Shown: positions 20,402 to 41,979 of the stretch, piece by piece
How the letters are laid out: every line of letters starts with the position of its first letter
Position numbering within the stretch: position 1 is the first letter of the stretch
Virus record (IMG/VR): IMGVR_UViG_3300042503_002233
Span: 1-60,721 of that record
Origin: a virus
Taxonomy: Duplodnaviria; Caudoviricetes
Length of the DNA stretch: 60,721 nt
Reading direction: 5' to 3' (one strand)
The notes under the pieces: generated by a model
Database searches by the model: none
What the model was told of the DNA's origin: nothing
Seen by the model: only the letters and a program-made list of their open reading frames with translations
Position numbers and translations under genes: made by a program

Positions 20402-20408
20402 GCGCTTT

Positions 20409-20930: not shown

Positions 20931-20932
20931 AT

Positions 20933-22582
20933 ATGCCACTTGAAATAACCAGCTTGCGAGAATTGTCGCCGGAGCAGATTGCGGCCGTGACAGCTACGTT
21001 GTCGCAGCTTATGCAGGAGCGCCACCCAGAAGTAGAGCTAAGTCGCGGTGTATTTCACGACTTGGTGCTCTATTTCAATGCCGTTTTAAACGCGGCTGTA
21101 AAAGAAAATATTGATCGCGTCATGCAGAGCAACAGCCTGCTAGCGATTACACAAAATCCGGCGTTAGCTGAAGATGCGCTGGTCGATCAGGTATTGTCAA
21201 ATTTTAACGTTACGCGCGACCCCGGGTCGCGGGCTACCGGCTCCGCTACGTTTGTTTTCTTGCTCGACAGGCAAACTGTAATTCAAAACGACATCGACTT
21301 CTCCGCGAACGACCGGATTTTCCGCGCGGCGAGCACTTACACATTTTTGCCGACGGGTAGTGTGGCCACTAAAACAAATGAACGCGTCTTGCTCGCGGTG
21401 GGTGACGGCACGTATTCCGCGTCGATTCCCATGCTCGCGACAACCGTGGGGGATGCGAGCAACATCCGCCGCGGTACGCCGTTTACCGCAAACGCCAGCC
21501 CCGGTAACGTGTCAGCCGTTTTTGCCACAAGCGATTTTGTTGACGGCAAAGACCCAGCAACAAACGAAATGTATTTGAAAAAGCTGGGCGACGGGCTAAC
21601 GGCAAAGACAATCGGTAGTCGAAAAAGCTATGAGGCGTTTATTCGAAGCTACCCGGAATACAGAAATATTTTGCACTGCTCTGTGCTCGGCTGCGGCGAC
21701 GTCGAGCAGCAGCGCGACCAGCACAGCATTTTCCCGATCTCAGGCGGCGGGAAAGTAGATATTTATCTGCAGACAAATTCGTCTGCGCAAGAAATTGATC
21801 ACACGCTAGAAGCTACGTACGTCGGCGTTAGCGAGGGCGGCACTATTTGGCAGGTTTCTATCCCTAAAAACGCGGCGCCGGGTTTTTACGACATAACCCG
21901 TGTCGCAAAGATTGGCGACTCCACGACCAACGGTTATGCCGTTGTACAAGACCTTCGCAACGTAGACTTGTCTCAAGCGTCGTTCGCTCCTGATATTGTC
22001 CACGTGTACGAGGGCGTGTACAGCCGATATCAGGCCGCCATTATTCGTTTTGAAGACTCCGACACGTTGTCATCTGGTTTGACCGTAAACAAGAGCAAGG
22101 CGCTATACACAGTGACTACACGAGGTATGCCGCTCATCGGAGATATACACGACACGCTCACGGCCCGCGATAATCGGCCGCGGGCTACGGACATTCTTGT
22201 GAAGGCGGCCGTGCCGTGTTTTACTCGGATCGCTTTTGAAGTTCGCACCGAGACAAATGAAATCATCAGCGCAGATAAGCTGCAAGAGATTAAAAAAGCT
22301 GTTGTTACTGCGGTGGCTGAAGTAGGCTTTTCTGGGCAGTTGCACGCCTCGGTTATTGCGAACGCTGCCCATAAGTTTTTAACAGGCCGGCAAGCTGTCG
22401 GGGCGGTTGATATGTTTGGTAAAATCCGGCGGCCAGACGGCACATACGCGTATCTGCGTGACAACACGATGTTAGCCATTCCGAACGACCCCACGCGTCT
22501 AGTCACGGGCCGTACAACGGCTTTTGTTGTGGGCGTCGACGACGTATCTATCTCGTACTCAGCCGCTGGCTTTACGCTCTGA
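20933..22582 (+). CDS. Baseplate J-like (gp6) wedge protein
   Basis: 549 aa; 'GVFHDLVL', 'NFNVTRDPGSRATGSATF', 'FVDGKDPATN', 'GGKVDIY' motifs typical of Baseplate_J. Confidence 0.75.
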   Translation: MPLEITSLRELSPEQIAAVTATLSQLMQERHPEVELSRGVFHDLVLYFNAVLNAAVKENIDRVMQSNSLLAITQNPALAEDALVDQVLSNFNVTRDPGSRATGSATFVFLLDRQTVIQNDIDFSANDRIFRAASTYTFLPTGSVATKTNERVLLAVGDGTYSASIPMLATTVGDASNIRRGTPFTANASPGNVSAVFATSDFVDGKDPATNEMYLKKLGDGLTAKTIGSRKSYEAFIRSYPEYRNILHCSVLGCGDVEQQRDQHSIFPISGGGKVDIYLQTNSSAQEIDHTLEATYVGVSEGGTIWQVSIPKNAAPGFYDITRVAKIGDSTTNGYAVVQDLRNVDLSQASFAPDIVHVYEGVYSRYQAAIIRFEDSDTLSSGLTVNKSKALYTVTTRGMPLIGDIHDTLTARDNRPRATDILVKAAVPCFTRIAFEVRTETNEIISADKLQEIKKAVVTAVAEVGFSGQLHASVIANAAHKFLTGRQAVGAVDMFGKIRRPDGTYAYLRDNTMLAIPNDPTRLVTGRTTAFVVGVDDVSISYSAAGFTL

Positions 22583-22589
22583 GCCAAAA

Positions 22590-24467: not shown

Positions 24468-24474
24468 GGGACGC

Positions 24475-25110: not shown

Positions 25111-25132
25111 ATAACATAGCCGGAGGACAAGG

Positions 25133-27331: not shown

Positions 27332-27341
27332 GTGAGCCGCT

Positions 27342-28283
27342 ATGCCTATTGGAAATTGGAATCTACAGTGGCTCAACCATAACTCGCAGCGGTCATATCC
27401 GCTGACGACGTGGGCAACAAAAGTAGACGTAAAAGAAGCGATTCGGCTTCCAGACAGCTTTATTGTCGCGATGTATCTCCCAATCAGCGCCACGATAAAC
27501 GCAGACACAAGCCGCTTTTTCTTAAAGAACGTCCTAATCAGCCCGACAGGTTTTAACATCACTGTCGGATACTTGAACGCCGAAGGTGACGCGATTGACG
27601 TCGCTGCCGCCAACATTGCGCGCGCGACATACGCGCCGAACAGGGCATATGCGCTCGGCGGTATTGACGAATTTAACGACACTATCGGTCATGTTGTACT
27701 CGGAACTTTAGACGAGATAGATAAGCTCGCGCCCGGATACTATACGTTCGACCTAGCCGGCGGAGCGTTAGAAGCAGACGTTATCAGGCCAAACATTCGT
27801 GGCGTATCCCGGCTGCGCGTAACAAATAACAACCAAAGTAGCGAGTACATTTATGGCGACGTAACGCTCGTCGCGGGCACAAACATTCGCATCAGCGTGG
27901 CGTACACGCCCACCGACACGAAAATAATTTTTGACGCTATCTCAGGCTTGAACTTAAACGCAGACTGTATTTGCCCTACGCCAAAAGAAGGCGAGTGCAT
28001 CCGTTGCATCAACGGCGTCTGCAGCGATAACGGCACGTTCACGCTTATCGCGAACGAGTGCGTTCAGTTGGCTCCGGGAAATAACAGTCTGACTCTCCGT
28101 GATGTGTGCGCGCAACCATGCTGCGGCTGCGCCGAGCTTGACGAGTTAAATACGCAAATTGACCGCTTCAGAGACGGCGTAACGACACTGCAAAACTTCG
28201 TAAGCCGTTTAAGCGCAGAGGTAACACAAATGTCACTCGTCGTGCTTGGAAGCAAGATCGGCGACACCGGCTGCGGCAACTGA
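27342..28283 (+). CDS. Cys-rich virion protein, paralog 1
   Basis: N-terminal 'WLNHNSQRSYPL'; 'IRCINGV..DNG.F.L'; CCGC followed by a coiled coil. Confidence 0.6.
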   Translation: MPIGNWNLQWLNHNSQRSYPLTTWATKVDVKEAIRLPDSFIVAMYLPISATINADTSRFFLKNVLISPTGFNITVGYLNAEGDAIDVAAANIARATYAPNRAYALGGIDEFNDTIGHVVLGTLDEIDKLAPGYYTFDLAGGALEADVIRPNIRGVSRLRVTNNNQSSEYIYGDVTLVAGTNIRISVAYTPTDTKIIFDAISGLNLNADCICPTPKEGECIRCINGVCSDNGTFTLIANECVQLAPGNNSLTLRDVCAQPCCGCAELDELNTQIDRFRDGVTTLQNFVSRLSAEVTQMSLVVLGSKIGDTGCGN

Positions 28284-28291
28284 GGTGAAAC

Positions 28292-29929
28292 ATGGCGCAG
28301 CAAACAACCGCCGATGACAACGCGGGAATCGGCGTCGGCGTCGTGCAGCCGCAAAGCGGATTAGATTATCCTTTTGTTGCGCCGGGGCTGAACGCGAATC
28401 CGACGTATCTGTTAGACGTCAGAGAATTGTTCGCGGATTTCTATTTGTCGTATGACGATCCCGGCTATTACCGGGCAGAACCGGGCGTTGCACACCCGTT
28501 ACGTATTTACTGGCTTTACGGCTTTGGCGATGGCCCCGCATGGTCTGCCGGCGCCCAGCCTATAAGCGACATTAGTATTCCGGCCCCGGAACACGCAAAA
28601 GATTTAATCGTCGTCGATAGCCAAGATAATGTCGTTTTTAACTCCACGCTGGCCGACGAGTACACCGAGACCGTATGGGGCACGCATTACAAGATTTTTG
28701 AGTGGCGCCGCACGTTCAATCCAACGGCAACGACTACGCGGGTAGCCGTGTGCCGCGCAGTTCAGTTTTTGAACCTGCACACAAACACAGCCATTCCCGA
28801 TCGCCCCATCGAGTTCTGCCCGCGAAACGCCGTGCTTGACGAGCGCACGATTGAAAAAATTCCCAAGCGTATTTTGGCGTTGCGTGTGCAAAACGGCAAT
28901 TGCGTTACGCCGTGGTTTAACGAAAAAGTCACGCTGGTGAACGGCCACAACACAGAAATAGACCTCGGTGAGTCTGCGTCGATTTTGACTAACGTTCCCA
29001 CGCTTACAACAAGCTTGCGCGGTAACAACGACATAATGTTTAAGGCCGTTGCCGGTTCTGGTTTTGGGCAGTTTGGACTGTGCGCAACAGGAATTTGCGA
29101 CGACGCGCCGCCGACCAATGTCTGCCCGCCCGGACAAGACCCGGCCGTTAAAATCTGCAAAGACGTCGAGGGAGAAGAAATCAAGTCGCTCAACGGGGTC
29201 GCACCTGACGCGAACGGCAACATAAATCTGAACGCGAACGACTGCCTTTTCGTGCGCAAACCGGCAGCATATACCGCAGATACACCGCATGATTACGCCG
29301 TAGTAAACGGACAAGAAACTCGTTCGGTTATTCACGTCGGAGCCGATTGTCCGCCCTGCTGCGCCTGCGACGATTATTTATCGACGGCACTCTATCTAAA
29401 AGCCGTACGCGACCAGTACGCGGTAATTGGCGAAAGAGTAGGCGCGTCGCAGCAACTTCACGCGCAAAACGTAGCGCGATGGAACGACCAGCGCGTTTGC
29501 CGGACTAAGAGGCCGTTGCGGCTTATTCTCGTGCCACAGCCGTGTCCGTGCATGGACGTCGTGGCTATGTACTGCAATCAGTGCGAAGATTGTTCTGAGA
29601 GCGTGCGCTTAACCATTGTTTTCGACTCCTCTCCGGGCGGCGGATCGGGCACGGTTGACCCGCGTTACACACAGATCGTGGGTAACGATTTCAGCGTGCC
29701 GGCAACGTTGAACGGCGGCTGGCCGGTGTTCTCAGTCGACTTCCCAACCGTTAAATCTGGTGAATCTGTTTACGTCAAGTTTCGATTGTGTTTTTGCCCG
29801 TCTTATCCTTACGCTATACACGGCAGTTTAACTGGGATCAAAAGCACAGGCCCAATCAAAGCTGGCTGTGAACCTGAAGCAGACGCCGCGTTAGCAGAAG
29901 CAAATCAAACTTTAGATTGCGAGCTTTAA
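28292..29929 (+). CDS. Cys-rich virion protein, paralog 2
   Basis: 'LDYPF', 'IKSLNGVAPDANGNINL', 'CPPCCAC' plus coiled coil. Confidence 0.6.
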   Translation: MAQQTTADDNAGIGVGVVQPQSGLDYPFVAPGLNANPTYLLDVRELFADFYLSYDDPGYYRAEPGVAHPLRIYWLYGFGDGPAWSAGAQPISDISIPAPEHAKDLIVVDSQDNVVFNSTLADEYTETVWGTHYKIFEWRRTFNPTATTTRVAVCRAVQFLNLHTNTAIPDRPIEFCPRNAVLDERTIEKIPKRILALRVQNGNCVTPWFNEKVTLVNGHNTEIDLGESASILTNVPTLTTSLRGNNDIMFKAVAGSGFGQFGLCATGICDDAPPTNVCPPGQDPAVKICKDVEGEEIKSLNGVAPDANGNINLNANDCLFVRKPAAYTADTPHDYAVVNGQETRSVIHVGADCPPCCACDDYLSTALYLKAVRDQYAVIGERVGASQQLHAQNVARWNDQRVCRTKRPLRLILVPQPCPCMDVVAMYCNQCEDCSESVRLTIVFDSSPGGGSGTVDPRYTQIVGNDFSVPATLNGGWPVFSVDFPTVKSGESVYVKFRLCFCPSYPYAIHGSLTGIKSTGPIKAGCEPEADAALAEANQTLDCEL

Positions 29930-29930
29930 T

Positions 29931-31538
29931 ATGCCAATTCGCAATCAGAACTGGTACAACCTGCAAGCCACGCGCCGTTATCCGCTCGATGATACATCTA
30001 CCGGCGAGGACGATACTGGCAAAACAATTCGCGACGACATCATCGTCGATTGCCATATTCGCTACCCGTCGACGATTGGCGAGCACCTGTTTGTACAGGC
30101 CATAAACATTACGCCCAATCTTATCACTGTCCTGTTCGGGCTGGCGCAAACGCTGGACGACACAGAGTCCCCGACGGTTGCCACAATTACGGTTGATAAA
30201 CCAGCAGAACGAAACGTCAATTACAGCATTACAGCTTTCGTTCCGGGCATCAGCGGCTGGGTTGCGTTCGGACCGGGCATCGAAACGCCTTTTGTCGGCC
30301 GCTACTCTACGCCCAAACAGACGCTCATCGGAAACAGGAACGCGCGTCCGTATCAGCCGCTCCCAATCCCGACGATCGGCAAGGTGGGACTGCTGGAATC
30401 ACTGCAAGGCATAGTCAATTTAATCGCTGAAAGCCCCGTCACCGCGACATATCACGAAAATTACGTCGTACCCAAGTACGACCCCGAAACAGATCAAATT
30501 AACGAACTTCCAGTTACAGCGATCGTCTTCTCGTCTGACGCGCCCACCGCGCAATTCAATCCGTTGACCTTTTTTCTGCCACCATGCGGACAGCGGCCAG
30601 AAAACGGAACCTGCCCGAAGCCACCGATCGAGCGCATCAACGGCGTAGACCCAGACTGCGACACCGGCAACATTGACATCGTTTTTAACGACGGACTTAC
30701 AGGCCGACCGTTTGCAGAATGCGGCGGTTTAGACATCACAACCGATCTTGGACTGTCTGCGGCGTGCGGCCCAGATAAAAACGACAAAAAAACCGGTAAG
30801 GACGAGTGCCCATGCGAAGAGCCCGACGCGGTAAGTAACTACTGCTGGCCAACTGCGATAGATGACATCTTTGATCCCGCAGCATGCCCGGAAGAACAAT
30901 TTTCTTGCCCGGCGCTTCCATTCTGCGTGTCACTGGCTTACGAGCAAGATGCGCTCAGCGTTACAAACGGCAGTTTTAGCGTCGCCAAGACTGTGGCGCC
31001 GCCGGCCAGTTGCTGCGACGTGGGGGAGCCAGATTTTTCAAATCACGAAGTTTGGGTCGCGTCGAGTGCTGCTGGCCTGAATATAGCGCTCTATCCGGCG
31101 TGCGCCGCCGACTGGGCGTACGACAAGATTATCTCGACTGAGTTCCGATTAAAGACTGGCGGGCTCAAACAAAATGGCGGCGTCGTTTTAAACCATATGC
31201 GCGTGCAAGAAAACGGACGCTGCCGTACAAAATACTACGCAGTGATATTTGACGGCAGCGCGGCAGAGTTGCAACTTTACCGTTTTGACGGCGCATTGCT
31301 TATTAAAGAGAACAAAGTATCCGTACCGAACGTTGTCGGAAATTGGTACAAAATATCGGCTTTTGCTACCGAAAGCAGCGGGTCATCGACAATCTCTGGC
31401 ACGCTTTACGACATGACTACCGGCGAGATCGTGGCCACGCTCACTACAAACACACCAGACTATGAAATGGTAAATGGGCGCGCCGGCATTATCACAAACT
31501 CGGCCATAACGCAATTTAATCGCTTCGAGATAACCTGA
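29931..31538 (+). CDS. Cys-rich virion protein, paralog 3, with C-terminal beta-sandwich (lectin-like?)
   Basis: 'WYNLQATRRYPL', 'IERINGVDPDCDTGNIDI'; C-terminal 'GNWYKIS...GRAGI...FNRFEI'. Confidence 0.6.
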   Translation: MPIRNQNWYNLQATRRYPLDDTSTGEDDTGKTIRDDIIVDCHIRYPSTIGEHLFVQAINITPNLITVLFGLAQTLDDTESPTVATITVDKPAERNVNYSITAFVPGISGWVAFGPGIETPFVGRYSTPKQTLIGNRNARPYQPLPIPTIGKVGLLESLQGIVNLIAESPVTATYHENYVVPKYDPETDQINELPVTAIVFSSDAPTAQFNPLTFFLPPCGQRPENGTCPKPPIERINGVDPDCDTGNIDIVFNDGLTGRPFAECGGLDITTDLGLSAACGPDKNDKKTGKDECPCEEPDAVSNYCWPTAIDDIFDPAACPEEQFSCPALPFCVSLAYEQDALSVTNGSFSVAKTVAPPASCCDVGEPDFSNHEVWVASSAAGLNIALYPACAADWAYDKIISTEFRLKTGGLKQNGGVVLNHMRVQENGRCRTKYYAVIFDGSAAELQLYRFDGALLIKENKVSVPNVVGNWYKISAFATESSGSSTISGTLYDMTTGEIVATLTTNTPDYEMVNGRAGIITNSAITQFNRFEIT

Positions 31539-32329
31539 TGACCGACGCCGCACGTATTCTATTCCCGGACTTTCGCGAAGAGCAGCGCGACTCTCGGTAT
31601 CCGTTCGTCGACACAGCAAACCTGCTGGCGACAGATGGTCTAACGGCCATCCAGCGCGACACGTTTATCGACGCCGTATTTCACATTATTGGCGCGGGCA
31701 ATCGTGTTTACATCTCGTCTGTAAAAATTGAGTCACAAAAAGTAACGATTACCCTCGGCGACGAAACGACAGACGCCGTAGCCGCGGCAACATTCGCTCC
31801 AAGCCCCATTGCCGCAACCGCGTCGGGCGGGCTAGCAATTTACGACTTGCTTGGACGACCCGCCGGCACGTTAGTGGCGACAAAAGACAACTTGTCGTTA
31901 TTTACAGGTTGGTCAATCGGCACCTACGAGTTTACGCGTGAAGCAACAGAGTTTGTATCGACCACGGTAATCCCGACAAGAGAGCCCGGCGTCCGTGGGT
32001 TGAGCCCAGCCACAAAAGAACTCATCACCGGCGACGTATGGTTAATTGGCGACGGCGGCGTCACATTTCGATACGGTGGCGTGCAAGACGGAAAACAGAT
32101 CATCCGCGTCGACGTCACGGGCGTGCCGCTTTCAAATCGGTTTTTGTGCGTGCCGTATGAGCGGTTTCAATCAAAAAACTTTGTGCGCACAATTAACGGC
32201 TGTCCCCCCGACGAATATGGCAACTTTACAATTACCGCGACCGGTCATGAGATCGACGACACTGTGTTGCGGGTCACACAAGCTGACGGCATAATTTTTA
32301 TAGACGCTGTCGGAAGAAAGGTGGTGTGA
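31538..32329 (+). CDS. Virion protein, paralog 4
   Basis: 'FREEQRDSRYPF', 'TGDVWLIG', 'VRTINGCPPDEYGNFTI'. Confidence 0.6.
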   Translation: MTDAARILFPDFREEQRDSRYPFVDTANLLATDGLTAIQRDTFIDAVFHIIGAGNRVYISSVKIESQKVTITLGDETTDAVAAATFAPSPIAATASGGLAIYDLLGRPAGTLVATKDNLSLFTGWSIGTYEFTREATEFVSTTVIPTREPGVRGLSPATKELITGDVWLIGDGGVTFRYGGVQDGKQIIRVDVTGVPLSNRFLCVPYERFQSKNFVRTINGCPPDEYGNFTITATGHEIDDTVLRVTQADGIIFIDAVGRKVV

Positions 32330-32330
32330 T

Positions 32331-33281
32331 ATGCCTCGCCCGGGTTTTTACAACGACAATGAATACCGCGCGTACCCGTTTATTTTCAAAGCCGGTGCGG
32401 TGGCCCTTCCTTACTCAACCGTGGTGGACTGCGGAATTATCATGGGCCTCGACAGCGAATTTGATGGTGAAGTTCATGAAGTGTGGCTGCAGCAAATCAA
32501 ACGCCTAAACAACACATTTGAATTCGAGTTTGCCACGAACGCCCCGGGAGCCGCGCAAAAGCCGCTGGTGTTCCAACGCGACGTCGATACAGCGGAGTGG
32601 CTGATGGAAGACGCCGAGTCCGAGCCATATGTTAAAGACGTCAATAGCTGCGCGACCGAGCCCGCGTGGTCCGGGTTTCTAGTTACGGGCCCGCTGAAAG
32701 ATTTAGAAGCCGCGCTGCCGAACGACGGAACAATCACTCTCGGGACGGCTTACACACTGGAGCCAGCACGTATTCAAAGCCTTGTTCGAAGCTATTTAAG
32801 AGCAGTCTCGCTTGGAAATTTTTCTCGGCCGCGGGCAAGATCGGCGTGCGACAATTCACCCGGCACGCCGCGACATGTTGTAATAAACAAACGATGCATT
32901 GCGGGAGATATTAGATTTAAAGAGGGCTACAACGCGCAAATTCGACAACGCGTACTTACAAACGAGATCGTCATTTCCGCTGGCCGCGGCTTTGGGGCGC
33001 AGTACGACGCAGAACTGTGCCAGAACCACGGGGAGATTCCATTTTACGACGGAGAGCAAAAGCCCATTTTGTTCCCCGCGGCGGATGGACGGCCAGAGGT
33101 ACGGAGCAAATTTTTTAGCGGCGGCCCAGCGTGTGACGAACTTGTGTCGTCTATAAACGGAGTAACCGGACCAGATGTTACAATCGTCGGCGGCACTGGC
33201 ATCAACGTGCGCGTCGATCAGGACAATCCAAATACCATACTCGTGACCCTGTCGACGACCAACATCGCCGGCAACTGTTAA
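32331..33281 (+). CDS. Virion protein, paralog 5
   Basis: '[12 protein letters not shown]', '[10 protein letters not shown]', '[14 protein letters not shown]'. Confidence 0.6.
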
Positions 33282-33292
33282 CAGGTCGTGCG

Positions 33293-36200
33293 ATGACAGA
33301 TTTTTTCTTCAAAAACAACAAGTGCGGTATCGCAAACAAGGTCGAGAAGTCGGACTTCAAGTTCGTCTTTGACTGCGACATCGTACCGACGCCGCCGCCG
33401 ATTTTTGACTGCCCGCCGCCGATCGTGCCGCGCGAACCTGAAATTCCGTGCCCTGTATTCGACGTCAAATCGAAACTGCAGGTCGGTTACGCCGATGGGG
33501 CTGATAGAGACGTCGATAACTGCGACGTCAAAGAGAACAAAATCAAGTTTGAGATCAGCAAGCGCGTGTTTGACGGCTGCCCCGCGCCAAACGACTGCGA
33601 ATTTGATGTTGACCTCGAAATTGATATCGCCTTTCCTGCGCCCCCGTGTCCTGACCTGAAAGTCAACACGTTCAGCGTTAAAAGCGGCTTTGCCGATCAG
33701 CCGTGCGCGCAAGAAGAAAGCAAATTTAGCATCCGCACAAAAAAGATTCCGGGAAAGGACTGCAATGATCCCGGCTCGTGCGAGTTCGAATTCGACCTTG
33801 AAATCAACGTCCCTATTCCGCGCGCGCCGTGCCCGAAAATCAACGTTAGGACATTTAACGTCAGCAGCGGCGACCCAACCCGGTGCGGCGTCGGGAGAAA
33901 CCGATTTGAGATTACGCCAAATCATCGGCCGGGTACAAATTGCGACGACCCGGGCGAGTGCAACTTTGACGTAGACCTCGAAATACACATCCCAATTCCG
34001 CGTCCACCATGCCCGGAAATAAAAATAAATGTTTTTGACGTCAAGTCCGGTTATGAAACAGCCGACTGCAGCGGTGAAAACAAATTTGAGATTCGGCGCA
34101 TTATCGAAGAGCCGCCGTGCGACGATCCGTTCAAACAGTTTAAGTGCGACTTTGAAGTCGACCTGCGGATATTTATTCCGATTCCGCAGCCGCCATGCCC
34201 TGAGATCAACATCAAAACTTTCTCGGTCAAAAGCGGGTACGCCGGTTCTGACTGCGCAAACGGAAGAAACCACTTTGAAATCACGACGAGAAAAATTCCG
34301 GGAGATTGTACGAACCCGGACAAATGCGAGTTTGACGTCAGTCTAGAGATTAATATCCCGCTGCCGCCAATCGTATGCCCGACAATTGTCATAAAAACGT
34401 TTAAAGTAACAAGCGACTACGCTGATCAATGTGCGCCCGGCCGAAACCGATTTGCGATCACAACGCGGCACGTCGAGCCAGAAAACTGCACGGACTCGGC
34501 GCCGGAGTGTAATTTTGACGTCGAGCTTGAGATTGACGTGCCGATCCCTCGGCCGCCGTGTCCTGAGATCAAAGTCAAGACATTTGAAGTGACGACCGGT
34601 TACAAGCTAGACAACTGCGCGCGGGGCGAGAACAAGTTCATCATCACGCGGCGAACGGAAAAAGCCCCGTGCGGCGACGATAAAAAAATTCAGGACGTGT
34701 GCGAGTTCGACATCGAACTCTCGATTGACGTTCCGATTCCAGTACCACCGTGCCCTGAATTAAACGTCAAAAAATTTGAAGTCAAGACCGCCTACAAGTT
34801 AGACGACTGCGAGCAGGGCGAAAACGTATTCAAAATTACAAAACGCATCACGCCCCCAACATGCGACGATGCGCCGCAATGCGAATTTGATTTTGAGCTC
34901 ACAATCAACGTCCCGATTCCCGTGCCGCCATGCCCGGATATCGACGTCAAGACGTTCAAAGTAAAGGTCGGCTACGCCGACACAGATTGCGCGCAAGGCG
35001 AAAACAAGTTTGTCATAAAAAAGACGGCCACGCCGCCAAGCTGCGACGGCTCGACAGCGGGCGATTGCAAGTTTGATGTTGAGCTTGAGATCAACGTCCC
35101 GATTCCAGTGCCGCCATGTCCCGAGATCAACGTCGGAACTTTTAAGGTCAAAAGCGGTTATGCACGTTGCATTAGCGGCTCAAACAAATTTACTGTCAGA
35201 AAGAAAGACATCCCCTCCGTACCAAATTGCGACAACCCCGAGCCGCCCAAATGTGAATTTGAAATAGACCTTGAGATCAACGTTCCTATTCCCGAGCCGC
35301 CGTGCCCAGAGATCAACGTTAGCTCGTTCAGTGTCAACTACATAGAGTACGCCGGCACGCAAGGACCGCCGAGCGTGGGCGGTTGCAATCAATTCGTAAT
35401 CAATAAGCGCGAAACGCCACCGTCATGCGACGGCGGAGGCGGAAATTGCGAATTCGATATTGACCTGCAACTGTGCATCCCGGTGCCCAGAATAAAATGC
35501 CCCGTATTTGTCACCCGCTTTAAAGTCGAAAGCGGCTACTCTGATTGCGTCAGCGGTAATAACGTTTTTGAGATCACAGGTAGCGACAACAACGGCGAGT
35601 GCGTATTTGACGTCAACCTAGAAATATCTATTCCAATACCCAAGCCGCCGTGCCCAGTCGTTCGGACAAATCTGGTGCTCGGGACGTTCCTGTCAAATTG
35701 CGGCAAAGGCGGCGGTGTATTTGACGTCTCAACTGAAATTATTCCGGGCGGCTGCGGCGCGCCAGACGCGTGTTTCTTCGACTTCAATCTTGAACTCTAC
35801 ATACCCATCCCAAAATTTGTAGAAGACGTTGTTTTTGCGGCGCCCAATCCAAAACTCGACGTCAGGTGGTGCGAACCAAACTTCGCTGGTGGTTTACTCC
35901 ATCCGCGCGTTTCATTCGTCAAAATGGCTTTTATAAGGAAAGCCGATATTTGGGCGAACGCGTGCGATCACGGACAACGCATTGCATACGACGTCGATTT
36001 TCAACTGGATATCGTACTGCCGCCTCTCCCGTGCAGTTATTTTAAACTCAGCCCCAAGAAGCCAGAGTTCCCTGTCCGCCGCGTTAAAGAGAACAAAGAA
36101 TATCTGAAACTGTCTGTTGTTCCAAAGCCGTCTATTAACTGCAACCCGTGCGAATACGAATTTGATATCGACATTCAACTGCGCTGCACGCCCTGCCCGG

Positions 36201-37852
36201 TTTTTCACAACAATCCGGCCAAGATAGACTTCATCCTGCCCACAGACCCGCCGCGAGGTAAAGTAGAAATTGCTGCGAGACCGAAAGCAGACTGCGAGTA
36301 TCCATGCGAATATGACGTCAATTTTGAGTTGTATCTGCCAAAGCCGTGCGTACCGAAATTCAACGTCCTGCCGCCGAGAGTCAATCCGTGTATTTACAGT
36401 GATGCCGCGACGTGGGAAACCTGCCGTCCCGAGGACAGCGAGTACATTAATCTCACTATTACGCCGTCCATCTCCGGCAACGCGTGCGAATACGACGTCG
36501 AAATCTATACCAAGCCGCCGTGGTATGTGCCGCGAGAAGTGGAGTGCGACGAGTTTGATACCTCATACGGCATTAAGGTTCAATACACAGAAGAAGACCC
36601 GCCACCAGACGGAACGTTAACAATTACGCCACGGGCGTTTGATCCGCTGATCGACAAACACTGTACGTACGATGTCGAAGCTGACATATACGTATCTACT
36701 AGGGGCTGCATTCCTAGCTTCAAAGTCCTCCCGACAAAACTTAATCCATGCTACTACAGCGATGCGAGTACGTTTGAAACTTGTAACCCCGAAGATGACG
36801 AGTTCATCACGCTTTCTATCACGCAACCGGACCCGGCAAAATGTAAATACGAAATCGAAGTTTACGCTAAGCCGGCGATCTACAGGCCAGAAAACAGAGT
36901 TTGCGACACGTTCGACACGTCGTACGGCATCAAGGTTCAGTACACATCAGAAGACCCGCCGCCAGCAGGCACGTTAACAATTACCGCACGGTCATTTGAT
37001 CCGCTCGTGGATAAGGCTTGCACATACGATGTCGAGGCGGACGTATACGTTCCTACGCCCGCCTGCCCGGAAATTTGGTACTCGCCGGGTAGTTTCCGCC
37101 TCGTGCCTGTTCCGATAAAGGACTGGAGCGCAAAGTACGAAACTCTCGATATAGAGTTCCTCCCTGAAATTAGTGAGGGTAAATGCCGCATCGAAATTGT
37201 TGGCGACATTAACGTACCCATCACGCGACTGACGTGCGATAAATTTGAAACTGCTGGCGCAGTCAAAATTAACGAAACGGACAGCGCCCCGTCGGGAACA
37301 CTCGCGATCACAGCGCGGGCGCTAGAATCAGGCGCCGAAAGCTGCACGTACGATGTCAGCCTTGAATTAAATCTTAACAAGAGCGGCGCAACAGGCCCGA
37401 CAGGGCCTACCGGGCCTTCTGGCGCAACAGGCCCCACTGGCCCCGGTACGACTGGACCAACTGGACCGACAGGTCCTTCTGGGGCAACAGGCCCGACTGG
37501 GCCTACCGGGCCTAGCGGTCCAACCGGCCCGTCCGGTCCCACTGGTCCCCGCGGCGCAACCGGCCCCACTGGCGCCGGTACGACTGGACCAACTGGATCG
37601 ACAGGCGCCACCGGTCCTTCTGGCGCTACCGGACCATCGGGACTACGCGGCGCTACAGGCCCTCAAGGCCCACAGGGCGCAACAGGGCCACAAGGCATAA
37701 CGGGCATTACAGGCGCTACAGGGCCAGTCGGGCCAACGATTACTAGCGTTGTTGGTTCAGTTTCATTTGGCGCGACTAACTCGTTAACCGGCTCATTCAA
37801 TAACGGCGTGCTCACGCTGAACCTCACACTTGCGACAACTACATGCCCATAA
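33293..37852 (+). CDS. Giant Cys/Pro-rich repeat protein with C-terminal collagen-like domain (putative long fiber/appendage)
   Basis: 1519 aa; ~13 well-conserved plus ~9 degenerate ~55-65-aa units (CPxIxVxxFxVxSGY..C..GxNxFxI......C....CxFDxxLxIxxPIPxPP), then G-x-T triplets. Confidence 0.8.
37385..37740 (+). repeat. Collagen-like (Gly-X-Y)n coding repeat
   Basis: GAT/GPT/GPS triplets with a couple of interruptions; synonymous codons vary. Confidence 0.9.
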
Positions 37853-37949
37853 AGTAATCGTTAAATAAGCAACAGCGTTCAAACCGCGCTAAAAAAATAT
37901 ACAATAGATGCTACGCTGGGCAGCATTACTTTCAACAATTGAGCGAACT

Positions 37950-39074
37950 ATGGCCGACGACACCGAAAGAAAAGACAGCGACGACCCGATGTCGCCAAAT
38001 TACGCGCCAAAACCAAACGAAGAGTTTGTAATACTGTCGGCCGCCGAAGACCCAACTCCATTAGGGCAATCGGAGATACTGCAGGAAAAAATACCTTTTG
38101 ATACTGTCGAAATACCGCTCGAAAACGGGTCAAACACATGGACCTTCTCCGGCGGTTCCAGTCCGTCCTCGTTCACGCTGCCCTCAACTACCGGCACGGT
38201 CGGCCCGCAAGGTCCACAGGGCGCAACGGGCGTTACAGGCGTAGCCGGCGCTACAGGCTCCACGGGCCCCCGCGGCGCGACTGGCATTACTGGCGCTTCA
38301 GGCGCGTCCGGCGCAACTGGCGCGACCGGAGCAACCGGGGCCACGGGCGCCACAGGTCCTCGTGGGCCTACTGGACCCACAGGCCCACTGGGCCCCACAG
38401 GCCCTACAGGGCCGCGTGGGCCTACCGGCGCTACTGGGCCGACCGGGGCCACGGGACCAACCGGACCACTAGGCCCCACAGGCTCTACGGGCCCTACAGG
38501 GGCTACGGGACCCACAGGCCCAACAGGACCAATTGGCCCGACTGGGCCTAGCGGGCCCACAGGACCTAGCGGACCGACAGGCCCGACAGGGCCGCGTGGA
38601 CCTACCGGGGCTACCGGTTTAACAGGTCCGATTGGGCCAACGGGAATAACAGGTCCAAGCGGCCCTACAGGACCAACAGGGCCGACCGGCCCATCCGGCC
38701 CGCGAGGCCCCACAGGTCCCACCGGAGCGACAGGGCCGACCGGAGCGCTCGGCCCCACGGGACCTACGGGCGCAACCGGGCCGTCTGGCCCAACCGGTCC
38801 AATAGGCCCGACAGGGCCTTCGGGGCCGAGAGGCGCTACTGGCCCCGCAGGCGTTATCGGCACAATGGGGCCAGCGGGTCCTGCCGGGCCTATAGGGCCG
38901 TCTGGCGTTTGCGGCCCTCGCGGCGCCACCGGAATGACCGGGCCAACCGGACCTATGGGCGTTGCGGCAATCACGCCGCAGTTCATCGACGACCTAATCG
39001 TGGCTGTTTACTCAAACGCAGCCCTTCGCACCGCAATCGTCGCCGTGGCGAATGGCGCAACTGGGCCGACGTAG
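37950..39074 (+). CDS. Collagen-like triple-helix protein
   Basis: ATG at 37950; long continuous G-P-T/G-A-T/G-P-S tract (~38190-38960) between a short acidic N-terminus and a hydrophobic helical C-terminus. Confidence 0.85.
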
Positions 39075-39113
39075 CTATAACAGAAAACCACGCCATTTAC
39101 ACATGAGGTAGCT

Positions 39114-39497
39114 ATGGGCACGACAAGTCGGTTTTCAATCAGCCGCGACACACTGATTCGCCACGCATTTGAAGACAACTTTTTTGTCAAGGTGCCTGAG
39201 TTAATCGCCTTCAAAGAGATGTTTGCAAATTGCAAAGAAACGTACAAGAAAGAACTTGAACAAAAAGGTTGTACGTGCCGCATGACGACAGAGTGGGCGA
39301 AACCATGTGTGCTGCCAATGATGGAGCAAGTCGAGGCGGCTAAGAAAACAAATCACGCGCTCGTTAGAAATTTTATTCGCTGTATCGGGCGCTACAGCGA
39401 AGACGCCGATGTTGACCACGTCGGCGTCAGCATTATTTACGACAAGACATATGACATTTTTGTAGACACCGCGGCGCCAGAAGAAAAGGCTGATTAA
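39114..39497 (+). CDS. Hypothetical protein (Cys-containing)
   Basis: 127-aa ORF with GAGG RBS. Confidence 0.6.
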   Translation: MGTTSRFSISRDTLIRHAFEDNFFVKVPELIAFKEMFANCKETYKKELEQKGCTCRMTTEWAKPCVLPMMEQVEAAKKTNHALVRNFIRCIGRYSEDADVDHVGVSIIYDKTYDIFVDTAAPEEKAD

Positions 39498-39498
39498 G

Positions 39499-40341
39499 AT
39501 GCCAACATTTAGCCCAACGTACTCAAAACTTTTTCACGGCAACCGGCCATTTGTATTAGCCAACGGAAAAGATGCGGCTGCCGTCAAAATCAGATTGCGA
39601 GACGCAGATAACAATCCGATTGCCGCGAGGCAGGTCGAGCTAGTCGCGGACGGGCAAAATGTCATCGTCAGCCAGCCCGCGCTAACACAGCCTGACGGCA
39701 CAACGATCGGATACATCGTCGCGACAACACCGGGCGTCGTGTCTATACGGGCGCGCACGCTTGTATCAAATATGGGCACGATGATCGACGAACGCGAACT
39801 ATCGTCGCCTGAAGCGCTACAAAAGCTGATGAACTCCACCGCGGGAGCGGAGTGGTTTGACGAGCCGATTACTGTCACCTTCTTTTCCCGCGATATCGAA
39901 CCAAGTTTACCGATCGAGGCGACGCCGAGAAACATTCGACTGGAGTGGGCGGTCAGCCGGTACGACATTAACGACATTGACGGCATCCGCGTGCGCATAA
40001 CAGCGACACAAGCCAACAACATGCCGACAAAAATCTTTGCGTACCAAATGCTGCCAGTAAGACCGGGCGGCACGCAACAGGTCGCGACATTTGACCACGT
40101 GTGTTCGTCGGTGGATTTAGAAGAGTACCCAGAAGATCAGGCGCTTCCTAACAGTCGGCCCGCGTGGTTTCGTTTAAACTACGTGGACGTCATGGTGCGC
40201 TCGCGAGATGAGACTCGTGAATTTATCAACAGCGTGCTTGAAGACGTACAACTGCTGAAAAACACACTGGACATCACTGACGATTTACTCCCCGGCGGCA
40301 ACGCATGGATTGGTACGCCGCCGGAAATAACTATTCCATAA
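39499..40341 (+). CDS. Protein with N-terminal Ig-like (Big_1/invasin-type) domain
   Basis: 'ANGKDAAAVKIRLRDADNNPIA...V.L.......T..DG.......TTPGVVSIRA' matches the Big_1 pattern. Confidence 0.7.
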   Translation: MPTFSPTYSKLFHGNRPFVLANGKDAAAVKIRLRDADNNPIAARQVELVADGQNVIVSQPALTQPDGTTIGYIVATTPGVVSIRARTLVSNMGTMIDERELSSPEALQKLMNSTAGAEWFDEPITVTFFSRDIEPSLPIEATPRNIRLEWAVSRYDINDIDGIRVRITATQANNMPTKIFAYQMLPVRPGGTQQVATFDHVCSSVDLEEYPEDQALPNSRPAWFRLNYVDVMVRSRDETREFINSVLEDVQLLKNTLDITDDLLPGGNAWIGTPPEITIP

Positions 40342-40356
40342 TGCACGGAGGCGGAT

Positions 40357-40659
40357 ATGGCATCTATTGTTGTTGTCGATGACGGCACAATTGCGTCGCT
40401 TGTCATGAACAATTCGATCTCAAACTCTATTCCGTGCCTGACCAATAAGCGCGGTTTGCTTGGAAGCGTGTCAAACGGTTGCGGTTCTTGTATGCGCAAA
40501 CGCCAGCAAAAGGTGCGCGAAGAGTACGCAAAAATTAAGTCGTGCTTGGCTGCGCTGAGCCCGGAAAAAAAGGAAGAACTGAAGAAGCACTTAAACGCCG
40601 AAAAAATTCGTGTCGTGTTCACGAACAACGGCGGGCAAACAGTTCAAATGACTTTTTAA
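40357..40659 (+). CDS. Hypothetical protein with CxxC
   Basis: 100-aa ORF, GGAGG RBS, GCGSC motif; last gene of the structural block. Confidence 0.6.
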   Translation: MASIVVVDDGTIASLVMNNSISNSIPCLTNKRGLLGSVSNGCGSCMRKRQQKVREEYAKIKSCLAALSPEKKEELKKHLNAEKIRVVFTNNGGQTVQMTF

Positions 40660-40746
40660 GCCCAGCTAAATTCTGACCAAAATCGCGGCATATTAAGTAC
40701 GCCCCCAATTGTTATCCGGGAGCGCACTTTAACCACGAGGTGTCAG

Positions 40747-41115
40747 ATGCAGTCTGAAACGAAGAAGGCGATCCTCCTCCGGGCCGCCGCGTCGCCATCG
40801 TTCGCGGTGGTCCCTGAGCACGCGATCAAGATGTTCGACCGCGTGATCGAGCAGACGTCTGCAGAAGCGATCGCCACCCACCCGGATGACAAGTGGGGGC
40901 AGATCGAGTTCTGGAAAGAAGCGATCCTCGATCGCGTCCTTCCTCGGCTCCGGGGCATCATCGCTGTGTACTACCACGAGTACATCGCGAGCCTGATGCG
41001 GGGCGACGGCAACGTCGAAACGGACCCGTACGGGTTCGACGATGTGCCGCCGTACGGCGGCGAAGCGCGCGCCCAGCGCGACGCTTACATGGCGTGTACC
41101 GCTTCGCTCGCATAA
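40747..41115 (+). CDS. Hypothetical protein
   Basis: 122 aa, GAGGT RBS, strongly C/G-ending codons. Confidence 0.65.
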   Translation: MQSETKKAILLRAAASPSFAVVPEHAIKMFDRVIEQTSAEAIATHPDDKWGQIEFWKEAILDRVLPRLRGIIAVYYHEYIASLMRGDGNVETDPYGFDDVPPYGGEARAQRDAYMACTASLA

Positions 41116-41127
41116 GCGGGCGGGGCT

Positions 41128-41189
41128 GCGGCTATTCAGCCGAAACACTTACCCCTACATAGGGTATTTGTTTCAGGCTGAATAGCCGC
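41128..41189. other. Long imperfect inverted repeat (62-nt stem-loop)
   Basis: GCGGCTATTCAGCC-GAAACA-CT-TACCC...GGGTA-TT-TGTTTC-A-GGCTGAATAGCCGC; perfect 14-bp outer stem; intergenic. Confidence 0.8.
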
Positions 41190-41233
41190 GCGGTTTTGCT
41201 ATCGGACTTTTCCTTAGCTATTAGAAAACAGCA

Positions 41234-41707: not shown

Positions 41708-41979
41708 ATCGACGCCAGCACAATGAAGTCGCGGCGGTAGCCGGCGATCGGCCCGCGCTTGCCCATCAGCAGTTCGTCGTCTGTCTTGCCGTCGGCGTCA
41801 ACGGGGTACGGACCGCCCATGTTGGATACGCCGGGCTTGTTGAACCCAAGCTCTGCTGCTTTTTTCACGACAAGGTGCGCGGTAGACGCGTCCAGCAGTT
41901 CTTCGATATTATTGCCGGCGACAACGAAATCGGCCCGGTTGATGGTAACCTTCGAAAGCTCGTCAAGGATAGAAATCAT
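41704..41979 (-). CDS. Hypothetical protein (91 aa)
   Basis: MISILDELSKV... start at CAT 41977-41979 with GGAG upstream on the minus strand; protein-like sequence. Confidence 0.6.
   Translation of the reverse strand: MISILDELSKVTINRADFVVAGNNIEELLDASTAHLVVKKAAELGFNKPGVSNMGGPYPVDADGKTDDELLMGKRGPIAGYRRDFIVLASI

Follow-up and report, generated by a model that had tools for sequence, protein, structure and literature searches.

Gene organization of the locus

The window, by which we mean the whole 60,721-nucleotide stretch of DNA analyzed, is from an uncultured lake-water myophage of ~200 kb and represents ~30% of its genome. Downstream of a Baseplate_J gene, positions 27342-40659 carry ten open reading frames (ORFs), hereafter the module, all on the + strand and separated by -1 to 55 nt (from ORF coordinates), just as an earlier note on this DNA had described co-directional, closely spaced genes. 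The features are as follows.

20933..22582, + strand: baseplate J / T4 gp6-like wedge protein, 549 aa (PF04865, 1e-6, 28.7 bits, cut-off 21.1)
22590-24467, 24475-25110 and 25133-27331, + strand: three conserved, family-less genes between baseplate J and the module
27342..28283, + strand: paralog 1, 313 aa, 11 Cys, best conserved of the five
28292..29929, + strand: paralog 2, 545 aa, 22 Cys
29931..31538, + strand: paralog 3, 535 aa, 16 Cys
31538..32329, + strand: paralog 4, 263 aa, 2 Cys, minimal version
32331..33281, + strand: paralog 5, 316 aa, 7 Cys, most divergent
33293..37852, + strand: giant protein, 1519 aa, 81 Cys (5.3%), Pro 12.2%
33425..35782, + strand: its shaft, 13 tandem repeats of ~60 aa (residues ~45-830; repeat listing)
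35783..37369, + strand: its distal divergent repeats (residues ~830-1359; anchor listing)
37370..37732, + strand: its collagen Gly-X-Y region (residues ~1360-1480; PF01391, 2.4e-13)
37908..39074, + strand: second collagen protein, 388 aa (PF01391, 1.3e-39)
39114..39497, + strand: small Cys protein 1, 127 aa, 5 Cys, position conserved
39499..40341, + strand: Ig-like Big_1 protein with a conserved C-terminal domain, 280 aa (PF02369, 1.7e-10, residues 19-87)
40357..40659, + strand: small Cys protein 2, 100 aa, 4 Cys, C-x14-CxxC-x17-C

This inventory bears out the earlier note, which had listed five paralogous genes, a 1519-aa Cys/Pro repeat protein, two collagen domains, an Ig-like protein and two small Cys proteins. 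The product of 20933..22582 also matches a baseplate wedge subunit in PHROGs (phrog_6, 1.7e-14), and the three genes that follow it had no match in Pfam, PHROG or NCBIfam. The last of these, 25133-27331, encodes 732 aa, of which the N-terminal ~446 aa are conserved and the C-terminal part is variable, with tblastn matches ending near residue 446 in about half of the loci. With its variable C-terminal half, this gene may be a more ordinary fiber or spike; thus, although the module does lie behind the baseplate genes, it does not simply stand where ordinary tail fibers would be, as the note had put it.

The gene order from 20933 to 40357 is retained in 19 IMG/VR loci, to the extent that the contigs cover it, and the module with its order was found again in more distant MAG-binned contigs; the earlier note had advised such a search of metagenomic contigs. 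Five parent contigs of the IMG/VR loci are 198-205 kb long with a completeness of 98-100%. The order 22524-24475-25133-27342-28292-29931 holds even where the 27342 ortholog is only 38-44% identical; residue 23 of the 22524 ORF is where its orthologs begin. These observations support the module as one conserved, co-linear late-gene unit behind the baseplate genes. Outside collagen and Big_1, it was unmatched in Pfam, PHROGs, NCBIfam and PDB sequences and by Foldseek against PDB and BFVD. The sequence comparisons therefore support the earlier view that, apart from these two domain types, the module corresponds to no described family.

Cysteine makes up 150 of the 4386 residues encoded in the module (3.4%), whereas the remaining 41 called ORFs contain 151 in 14453 (1.0%; Fisher OR 3.35, p 6e-24). 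This enrichment is well beyond chance and persists at 2.4% when the 1519-aa protein is left out (p 4e-8). Scored over 14-17 ortholog rows, the conserved Cys in paralogs 1 to 5 number 11/11, 14/22, 12/16, 2/2 and 5/7, and in the small proteins 4/5 (127 aa) and 4/4 (100 aa), with 14 rows each.

A giant cysteine-repeat protein predicted to form a trimer

Homologs of the giant protein (n=70) range from 837 to 2579 aa, as expected if the number of repeats varies, and most contain collagen; in the loci their Cys content is 3.2-5.4%. Each shaft repeat has three long beta strands and four invariant Cys: A lies in PPCP, B and C in the loops beta1-beta2 and beta2-beta3, respectively, and D in C-E-F-D. 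Among 33 three-repeat segments that are 41-61% identical, all four Cys are invariant in the first two repeats, and the third repeat has three invariant Cys and a fourth conserved in at least 90%.

AF2 modeled the shaft with three strands per repeat at medium confidence (pLDDT 68.1, pTM 0.33). When three copies of a 186-aa, three-repeat piece were predicted together, as the earlier note had advised, ipSAE values of 0.70, 0.71 and 0.70 were obtained against 0.00 for the best control; this run used an author-built alignment and three copies, i.e. it goes beyond the calibration of the tool, in which the mark was reached by 20/30 solved pairs and 1/23 single chains. Partner pLDDT was 76-77, contacts agreed at at least 90% between runs, and in the predicted trimer each chain pairs its strand 3 with strand 1 of its neighbor. 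These models predict that the giant protein trimerizes, as a fiber should; collagen, for its part, is obligately trimeric.

The distal divergent repeats retain the start C.[FY][DE][VFI], have 2-4 Cys each and include a duplicated ~119-aa unit (1005-1123 and 1124-1242). After the collagen region the protein ends with a 37-aa tail that finishes in Cys-Pro. The same type of tail is found in L004, most relatives finish instead with a helix, L..LI.QL.TN..LR.A, and FN3-like ends were seen in the relatives L011 and L020. One homolog, P0150, carries a pectate-lyase-like domain C-terminal to collagen (PF12708, 6e-18), and the position after collagen is the usual site of a receptor-binding or depolymerase tip.

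Apparent cysteine pairing in the shaft

Because the A and D Cys served to define the repeat units, the covariation test concerns the B-C pair, and it was applied to 292 consecutive repeat pairs from 68 proteins, in a comparison across 71 giant-protein homologs. The Cys count of loop B in repeat j equals that of loop C in repeat j+1 at 283 of the 292 junctions, and control registers match far less (7/68 within the same repeat, 8/54 in the opposite register). Twenty-nine junctions deviate from the standard arrangement, among them 10 co-losses, 10 co-gains and 7 with a substitute Cys at strand 3 position 9, and an even Cys count is retained at 290 of 292, these counts ignoring shared ancestry: the co-gains are confined to 5 related proteins, and maybe to one or two events, while the co-losses are spread across 8 proteins. 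In the AF2 topology, loop B (j), the end of strand 3 (j) and loop C (j+1) meet at one junction. Some arrays have lost B and C and have A and D only (e.g. P0188), which indicates that A-D is a separate pair, and some clades have added a third Cys pair at the same junction. This pattern of sequence change suggests that the shaft Cys function in pairs, as expected of staples.

The earlier note had left open whether such an appendage would be stapled by disulfides or by metal. It is conceivable, if unlikely, that the Cys are metal ligands, with a Cys4 Zn (or Fe) site at each junction and Zn or Fe-S bound by the paralog clusters. The topology does gather four Cys per junction, paralog 1 has knuckle-like CxC, CxxCxxxxC and CxxxCCxC, all conserved, and CxxC and CxC patterns recur in the small proteins; indeed, the paralog clusters (CxC, CxxC, PCCGC) resemble metal sites as much as disulfides. 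Metal ions are known on the fiber axis of T4 fiber proteins. Furthermore, virions assemble in a reducing cytoplasm, which counts against disulfides, and metal sites can form there, which would remove the assembly problem. No cytoplasmic thiol oxidase was found; Erv1/ALR was seen in 0/5 complete relatives, a result that carries no weight, as control genomes likewise gave no signal. However, the shaft repeats are without CxxC knuckles, and a Cys4 site could not survive the loss of two ligands, as in the arrays reduced to A and D, and would have no use for six. Parity maintained through co-loss, co-gain and substitution thus favors disulfide staples over metal sites in the shaft.

Five remotely related genes

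The kinship of the five genes upstream of the giant gene is clear only from profile comparison, as BLASTP connects just three pairs (2e-4 to 1e-3), whereas hhalign links all five at 80-98%. Paralog 1 (27342) aligns with 28292 at 98% (8e-14), with 31538 at 97.5% (5e-12, almost the whole length of the 31538 product) and with 29931 at 87% (4e-6, over residues 1-237); 32331 is joined through 28292 (80%, 1.4e-5), its direct comparison with 27342 giving only 20% (1e-3). On these profiles all five genes are related, though remotely, and hhalign related none of them to the three upstream genes.

The five have in common an N-terminal peptide ('..R..YP[LF]'), a beta domain and a stretch of the form 'INGV.PD..GN'. 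In paralog 1, the R..YPL peptide is followed by the beta domain (~30-150), the INGV motif, a Cys cluster (C209, C211, C219, C222, C227, C240, C256, C260, C261, C263) and a C-terminal helix at 264-293; its AF2 model is of medium confidence (mean pLDDT 64.6, pTM 0.45), and its pLDDT exceeds 85 at residues 30-150 and falls under 50 in the Cys cluster. Its wider family comprises 826 cluster representatives, 0 of them annotated, with the consensus PIRTINGVxPDxxGNxxL ... CSxPCCGCxEL. Paralog 2 has its mid-region and PCCxC cluster in common with paralog 1 and adds a C-terminal domain; paralog 3 combines the shared N-terminal domain with a middle part rich in Cys and a C-terminal domain of its own (~380-535) of unmatched fold, and had no match to PDB sequences at E<=1. 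Paralog 4 consists only of the N-terminal domain and an INGC..D..GN region, and the N-terminal motifs of paralog 5 are YRAYPF and SSINGV.

A shared N-terminal anchor with differing distal domains would also befit a branched receptor-binding set conferring several host specificities, like the multi-tailspike complexes of some Escherichia, Salmonella and Klebsiella phages, with the giant fiber as one more receptor binder. We consider this quite improbable. It is true that lengths (263-545 aa) and C-terminal parts differ among the five, that paralogs 2 and 3 vary most between relatives (33-69% and 36-61% identity across loci), and that a few members of the paralog 1 family have C-terminal extensions of 413-931 aa. 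Receptor binders, however, normally swap distal domains, whereas all five paralogs occur in the same order and with similar lengths in every locus reaching them, the first three are present even in contigs whose paralog 1 is only 38-44% identical, and paralog 1 is 58-81% identical over its full length across the 19 loci. Moreover, scans for lectin, depolymerase or other binding domains found none in the five (Pfam) or in the 8 extended family members covered. The paralogs show too much conservation of sequence and order for fast-evolving receptor binders, and they look more like baseplate-periphery or adaptor proteins.

Genes downstream of the giant protein and the location of the module

Of 13 loci examined, 11 have a separate collagen gene (214-407 aa) after the giant gene. 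Here it encodes the 388-aa protein, whose true start is possibly Met15 (37950) and in which a non-collagen N-terminus of ~95 aa leads into ~255 aa of Gly-X-Y, with a helix at the C-terminus. Neither small Cys protein belongs to a family in Pfam, PHROGs or NCBIfam; the 127-aa protein may be an assembly factor or a minor structural component, and the 100-aa protein is 48-63% identical across loci.

We give little credence to a structural module outside host recognition (whiskers, neck or head fibers, or tail 'hair', maybe not at the tail tip, serving stability, aggregation or particle/mucus attachment): collagen-, Ig- and FN3-like domains are also known from whisker and head decoration proteins, the PHROG matches include a 'virion structural protein' of the head category, two relatives have the FN3-like ends mentioned above and the variable half of 25133-27331 could already be the receptor binder, but the module continues the baseplate genes without a break, the tail module of the nearest cultured backbone, Arash, ends at the corresponding position, and one homolog bears a depolymerase-type domain at its tip.

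A putative distal tail appendage

We suggest, with a probability of roughly 60%, that the module encodes a distal tail appendage made of a baseplate-attached adaptor set and a covalently stapled fiber. The five paralogs, as adaptors or parts of the baseplate periphery, would form a platform beyond the J-type wedge, and the 1519-aa protein would be a homotrimeric fiber, in which 13 stacked three-stranded beta repeats might form an intertwined shaft that continues into the divergent repeats, a collagen triple helix and a short C-terminal tip. At each repeat junction, four Cys per chain would work as two pairs, one of which would join the hairpin loop of one repeat (j) to the beta2-beta3 loop of the next (j+1). 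Such B(j)-C(j+1) pairing would staple the shaft repeat to repeat by a disulfide ladder, with ~26 disulfides per chain if all form, probably oxidized following release into oxic water. The second collagen protein, the Ig-like protein and the two small Cys4 proteins could complete the appendage or aid its assembly. We infer the virion and tail location and the disulfide chemistry of these proteins, as well as a role in host recognition, the last from where the genes lie, from the collagen and Ig-like domains and from the one pectate-lyase-like homolog. Conserved as a module, unmatched outside collagen and Big_1, with apparently paired Cys and a predicted trimer, the system agrees in part with what the earlier note had proposed.

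Comparison with known systems

That phage fibers are Cys-poor, the premise of the earlier note, is a fair rule of thumb, but disulfide-linked fibers and baseplates have a precedent in the freshwater cyanomyophage Pam3. Its fibers (gp24) are disulfide-bonded to Cys-rich wedge loops (gp22/gp23) with about six fiber-to-wedge disulfides per wedge in a minimal six-protein baseplate, and they detach in DTT (PMC9942802). Pam3 and the window phage are both freshwater myophages with Cys-rich baseplate-periphery proteins and fibers apparently held by disulfides, and in either case one may ask whether assembly or triggering depends on redox state. Unlike the window module, however, the Pam3 fiber shaft has no Cys-repeat ladder and no collagen, and the likeness is functional rather than a demonstrated homology.

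Collagen-like phage tail fiber and minor tail proteins (phrog_6320, phrog_5073, phrog_819, phrog_1806; PF01391) match the two collagen regions, phrog_6320 at 1e-81 and 2.5e-34, but leave the 1340-aa Cys-repeat body of the giant protein without a match. The PHROG tail-fiber matches of the giant protein lie nearly all within residues 1342-1515 of 1519. Since they fall almost entirely on Gly-X-Y and short flanks, such matches reflect composition and repeats, not orthology.

T4 gp9, gp10, gp11 and gp12 are peripheral baseplate trimers that are reported to share an ancestral fold and are not Cys-rich. Like the five paralogs, they are related proteins encoded in a row after wedge genes (gp6/gp7-type in T4), building the outer baseplate and short fibers. 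Pfam gave no relation between the two sets, and hhalign probabilities against T4 gp6-12 and wac were all under 6%, in a test that is weak, since it also missed the known J/gp6 relation.

Salmonella phage Arash (OQ632216), described as an 'orphan' myophage (PMC10585845), is the nearest cultured backbone, with 32% identity in TerL, 28% in the C-terminal part of the sheath and 31% at the N-terminus of baseplate J, and the two phages share the odd position of a sigma-factor gene, immediately ahead of the baseplate genes. Downstream of its J-like gp13, Arash encodes one protein of 723 aa and three small proteins before the module ends, without a five-paralog set, a giant Cys protein or collagen genes.

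Finally, Big_1 or invasin-type domains are found on phage surface proteins (PF02369), and the match at residues 19-87 of the 280-aa protein scores above the Pfam cut-off (41.3 bits, cut-off 34.9). Its remaining 190 aa form a clade-specific domain, and in most relatives the counterpart is split into two ORFs of 90-95 aa and ~175 aa.

A cysteine-rich gene module behind the baseplate

The window is estimated to be ~30% complete (CheckV estimate in the IMG/VR record, 60,721 bases) and carries almost all of its large ORFs on the + strand, the sole long minus-strand gene being that of the large terminase at 52450-54423 (-; GpA_ATPase 6e-14). The presence of genes for a sheath-like protein (weak match to PF04984) and a baseplate J protein (Baseplate_J / phrog_6, 20933-22582) shows that it belongs to a contractile-tail phage. 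Ten co-directional ORFs with intergenic gaps of -1 to 55 nt follow the baseplate J gene, at exactly the coordinates at which the earlier note had placed an appendage system:

27342-28283, +, paralog 1
28292-29929, +, paralog 2
29931-31538, +, paralog 3
31538-32329, +, paralog 4
32331-33281, +, paralog 5
33293-37852, +, giant Cys/Pro repeat protein with collagen, 1519 aa
37908-39074, +, second collagen protein, 388 aa
39114-39497, +, small Cys protein, 127 aa
39499-40341, +, Ig-like protein, 280 aa
40357-40659, +, small Cys protein, 100 aa

The composition claimed for these proteins was borne out throughout. The giant protein contains 81 Cys (5.3%) and 12.2% Pro, and collagen (PF01391) is matched both by it (2.4e-13, 50 bits) and by the 388-aa protein (1.3e-39, 134.2 bits) against a gathering cut-off of 27.2 bits. 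Big_1 (PF02369) covers residues 19-87 of the 280-aa protein (41.3 bits vs. a cut-off of 34.9), and the two small proteins have 5 and 4 Cys, respectively. The enrichment of Cys in the module exceeds chance, with 150 of 4386 residues compared with 151 of 14453 for the remaining 41 called ORFs of the window (odds ratio 3.35, P = 6e-24); when the giant protein is left out, the proportion in the module is 2.4% (P = 4e-8). In alignments of 14-17 orthologue rows, 11 of 11, 14 of 22, 12 of 16, 2 of 2 and 5 of 7 Cys are conserved in paralogs 1 to 5, as are 4 of 5 in the 127-aa protein and 4 of 4 in the 100-aa protein.

Two of the ORFs called in this region probably have their true starts further downstream. 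For the 647-aa protein, whose longest-ORF start is at 22524, orthologues begin at residue 23 (Met, position 22590); a start there abolishes the overlap with the baseplate J gene. For the second collagen protein, with a longest-ORF start at 37908, the alignment of the closest orthologues begins at residue 15 (Met, 37950). Across 24000-43000, promoter-like sites were fewer than the shuffled mean, and the 37 terminator-like sites were less than 2 SD above it.

Occurrence in uncultured phages

When the same gene order was sought in metagenomic phage contigs, an IMG/VR scan with paralog 3 returned 19 loci, and in these the order from gene 20933 to gene 40357 is kept as far as the contigs reach, at 28-92% identity (tblastn). 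Five of the parent contigs are 98-100% complete and 198-205 kb long, two of them with terminal repeats. At the 90% cluster level, paralog 1 was found to have 462 relatives, every one unnamed or 'hypothetical'; at the 50% level there are 826 representatives, none annotated, and 369 of these have E<=1e-30. One protein is named as from Sphingorhabdus sp., probably by the same kind of misplacement as described next.

Paralog 1 was also found in eight MAG-binned contigs, which keep the gene order 22524-24475-25133-27342-28292-29931 where sequence exists, even at 38-44% identity. The MAG labels (Synechococcaceae, Phycisphaerales, Gemmatimonadota, Nanopelagicales, Gemmataceae and Nannocystaceae, with one MAG labelled only 'bacterium') were rejected as a guide to the host, since the eight loci are spread over at least six unrelated lineages. 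These contigs are likely binning artefacts that have placed phage genes in public bacterial genome records.

DNA of the window is present in lake-water metagenome runs, with a ~95% identical strain in a lagoon run; among the runs listed, none is an RNA run. Contigs from two runs span 32300-40700 without a difference and thus support the assembly of the repeats, albeit not as independent evidence, these runs being possibly the source of the window.

Comparison with described families and cultured phages

The claim that the system matches no described family was upheld for the paralogs, the small proteins and the Cys-repeat body in Pfam, PHROGs and NCBIfam. No NCBIfam family was matched by ten proteins compared with it, no PHROG by the five paralogs or either small protein, and no Pfam family by eight longer members of the paralog-1 family; among 61 diverse members of that family, a single stray PHROG match (4e-4) was obtained. 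The PHROG 'tail fiber' matches of the giant protein all fall inside residues 1342-1515, i.e., the collagen with its short flanks, and none over the body. Several Pfam names that appeared for giant-protein homologues (P0160 and P0188), including Enas, Bc2l-C_N, Anti-TRAP and HAMP_N3, were dismissed as repeat artefacts, as no stretch passes alone.

Among PDB sequences, neither profiles A1 and A2 nor three single proteins (paralogs 2 and 3 and the 732-aa protein encoded directly upstream of the module) found anything meaningful; among INPHARED phages there was no match by megablast of 20000-33000 or by tblastn of paralogs 1 and 3. Against the PDB, Foldseek retrieved nothing at E<=0.001 with a model of the giant-protein repeat. 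Likewise, the paralog-1 model, which is confident over residues 30-150 only, found nothing at this level in the PDB (best 0.09) or BFVD (best 0.021, TM about 0.1). In the ESM Atlas, residues 100-830 of the giant protein had no usable match, and the best feature score for paralog 1 was 0.79, under the level that counts as more than a lead. The T4 gp9, gp10, gp11 and gp12 families were not matched in Pfam at E<=0.1; the family profiles gave under 6% with individual T4 sequences in hhalign, a test insensitive enough to give only 0.2% for Baseplate_J against gp6. Nor did Foldseek with the paralog-1 model reveal a fold in common with these T4 proteins.

Among cultured phages, the nearest is Salmonella phage Arash, which has been described as an orphan (PMC10585845). 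Identity is 32% for TerL, with partial matches for the sheath and baseplate J. However, the corresponding module of Arash consists of one 723-aa and three small proteins and then ends, without the 13-kb set, so that this set is specific to the uncultured clade. By sequence, the ten genes would form a phage baseplate and fiber module built of undescribed families.

The five paralogs

The relatedness of the five genes is marginal by BLASTP alone (2e-4 to 1e-3, three pairs), but hhalign, with profiles built from each window protein and its orthologues, links all five, as had been claimed. Gene 27342 was joined to 28292 at 98% (8e-14), to 31538 at 97.5% (5e-12) and to 29931 at 87% (4e-6), and 28292 was joined to 32331 at 80% (1.4e-5), the direct comparison of 27342 with 32331 reaching only 20%. 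No relation was detected in this way between any of the five and the three genes upstream. All five share an N-terminal '[RSD]YP[LF]' peptide and an 'INGV.PD..GN' stretch. In an alignment of 61 paralog-1 family sequences (29-48% identity), P20, C240, C256 and C260 are invariant and the consensus reads PIRTINGVxPDxxGNxxL ... CSxPCCGCxEL. The AF2 model of paralog 1 is confident over residues 30-150 only and falls below 50 over the Cys cluster.

The strong conservation of the order and length of the five genes argues against fast-evolving receptor binders. We suggest that the five paralogs probably serve as an outer platform or as adaptors of the baseplate, with the shared N-terminal peptide, itself poorly predicted, as an apparent docking element. 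Their Cys motifs (CxC, CxxC, PCCGC) would be as compatible with metal sites as with disulfides.

A predicted trimeric shaft in the giant protein

Twenty 'C.[FY][DE][VFI]' anchors cut the giant protein into units, which are arranged as follows:

Residues ~45-830, shaft of 13 regular repeats of ~60 aa, each PPCP - strand - Cys loop - strand - Cys loop - CEFDV strand - PIP
Residues ~830-1350, divergent units (2-4 Cys), among them a 119-aa duplication
Residues ~1360-1480, collagen, followed by a 37-aa tail ending in Cys-Pro

Its homologues range from 837 to 2579 aa, most with collagen, and in one of them (P0150) a pectate-lyase-like domain follows the collagen. Both collagen proteins end in a similar helix in most relatives.

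The window and nine relatives supplied 33 three-repeat segments (41-61% identical), in which repeats 1 and 2 have all four Cys invariant and repeat 3 has three, the other being conserved in at least 90%. AF2 on this alignment placed three long strands in each repeat (pLDDT 68.1, pTM 0.33). When three copies of the three-repeat piece were predicted together, ipSAE reached 0.70, 0.71 and 0.70, compared with 0.00 for the best control, with partner pLDDT of 76-77 and at least 90% of contacts common to the runs. In calibration, 20 of 30 solved pairs attain the mark applied here, as does 1 of 23 single chains; the present job lies outside that calibration because it used our own alignment and three copies. 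Chains in the predicted trimer are joined by pairing of strand 3 with strand 1 of the neighboring chain, indicating an intertwined trimeric shaft. A collagen domain likewise implies a trimer. The shaft of the giant protein is therefore predicted to be homotrimeric, on modelling grounds; assuming that its 13-14-residue strands lie parallel to the axis, we estimate roughly 55-60 nm for the regular shaft and about 35 nm for the collagen.

Evidence for pairing of cysteines along the shaft

We designate the four Cys of a repeat as A (in PPCP), B (loop between strands 1 and 2), C (loop between strands 2 and 3) and D (start of strand 3). With the strands arranged as an antiparallel meander, one end of the repeat carries A, C and D and the other carries B, close to where strand 3 ends and the next repeat begins. 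A total of 446 units from 71 proteins were collected, 364 with exactly four Cys; the 402 regular ones gave 292 consecutive pairs in 68 proteins.

Loop B of repeat j and loop C of repeat j+1 contain equal numbers of Cys in 283 of the 292 pairs, and among the 29 junctions where either count is not one there are 10 joint losses and 10 joint gains. At all seven junctions where B is present and C(j+1) absent, a substitute Cys occupies position 9 of strand 3, on the B side of the junction; seen from the other direction, the loop-C Cys is missing in 9 of the 10 units with an extra Cys at this position. The 283 equal counts and the seven substituted junctions together mean that Cys parity is held at 290 of 292 repeat junctions. 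In the control registers, equal counts were far less frequent, at 7/68 within the same repeat and 8/54 in the opposite register. The events are not independent (co-gains occur in five related proteins and co-losses in eight), so the Fisher values of 2e-14 and 6e-17 overstate the association. A and D persist in arrays that lack B as well as C through loss. Their pairing is proposed, both having served to define the units.

The alternative to disulfides is a metal site formed by four Cys. The Cys behave as two separate cystines would, one joining A to D within the repeat and the other joining B(j) to C(j+1) across repeats, and unlike the ligands of a Cys4 metal site. There is good statistical evidence for a disulfide ladder in the shaft, its basis being statistical and topological rather than chemical. 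The appendage reading of the earlier note, which had allowed for either disulfide or metal stapling, is partly supported by the conserved module, the absence of a described family and the trimer prediction, and the apparently paired shaft Cys favor its disulfide form.

Proposed working and significance

We propose that the giant trimer would form a long fiber, anchored by its conserved N-terminus with the collagen and tip pointing outward, and that the second collagen protein would be a second fiber or a partner. The Ig-like protein and both small Cys4 proteins would act as decoration or assembly factors. Oxidation would most likely take place after lysis, in oxic lake water. No match to an Erv1/ALR thiol oxidase was obtained in the five complete relatives, control genomes being likewise without signal. 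All five of these ~200 kb relatives encode a small thioredoxin-fold protein with a hydrophobic, signal-peptide-like N-terminus (active site WCKYCQ in four, WCGPCR in one), which is absent from the window fragment and may be an exported thiol-disulfide oxidoreductase.

It is tempting to go further and propose an undescribed type of fiber shaft, a trimeric beta-prism of 60-aa modules with an inter-repeat disulfide ladder (on the order of 80 per fiber). Its mount would be an adaptor platform of five Cys-cluster paralogs that is shared by hundreds of uncultured aquatic large phages. Redox state could then gate assembly, fiber deployment or the contraction trigger, with particles that mature only once in oxic water and are disarmed by reductants. 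This full reading is tentative, and we would give it a probability of roughly 0.3. The freshwater myophage Pam3 is reported to rely on disulfides and to lose its fibers in DTT (PMC9942802). If the ladder is real, it would extend this observation of redox chemistry in the baseplates of freshwater myophages, and the fiber would be the most heavily disulfide-bonded phage fiber known to us.

The module is a conserved core of a widespread, wholly uncultured group of lake phages (~200 kb), and its repeat is a new domain, absent from Pfam, for which a disulfide map can be proposed. In practical terms, the repeat may be of use as a modular, covalently stabilized rod, and annotation resources that cover metagenomic phages could take up these families.

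Neighboring genes and variants

The Big_1 gene (39499-40341) corresponds in most relatives to two ORFs, one for an Ig-like protein of 90-95 aa and one for a conserved protein of ~175 aa, the latter with an FN3-like C-terminal extension in two loci (L011 and L020); fused and split forms thus occur across the clade, as do forms lengthened by shuffled domains. In the 732-aa protein (25133-27331), the N-terminal part of ~446 aa is conserved, and about half of the relatives have a C-terminal half that is either replaced or strongly diverged. Such a conserved N-terminus with a variable C-terminus is a receptor-binding pattern, and this protein may therefore be a more ordinary fiber or spike of the phage.

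A sigma-70-like factor (19113-19928, +; Sigma70_r3 1.1e-7, r4 2.6e-5; phrog_351) is encoded in the tail and baseplate row, three genes upstream of baseplate J. The arrangement is also listed in a further locus (L026, 11892-12596), and this unusual placement of a sigma-factor gene before the baseplate genes is common to the window and Arash (gp10 'RpoS' ahead of the J-like gp13). The 1672-aa ORF at 10690-15708, with zero Cys and no family match, occupies the place of the 1165-aa structural cell-wall hydrolase of Arash; AT skew at 10000-16000 is 0.23-0.27 compared with about 0.1 elsewhere. Finally, the sheath-like protein (2221-5778, 1185 aa) has an inserted region at residues ~410-680 that matches head decoration, neck, baseplate or tail fiber domains of unrelated phages, for example with 46% identity to Gordonia phages over residues 537-648, and is probably a mobile Ig-like decoration domain.
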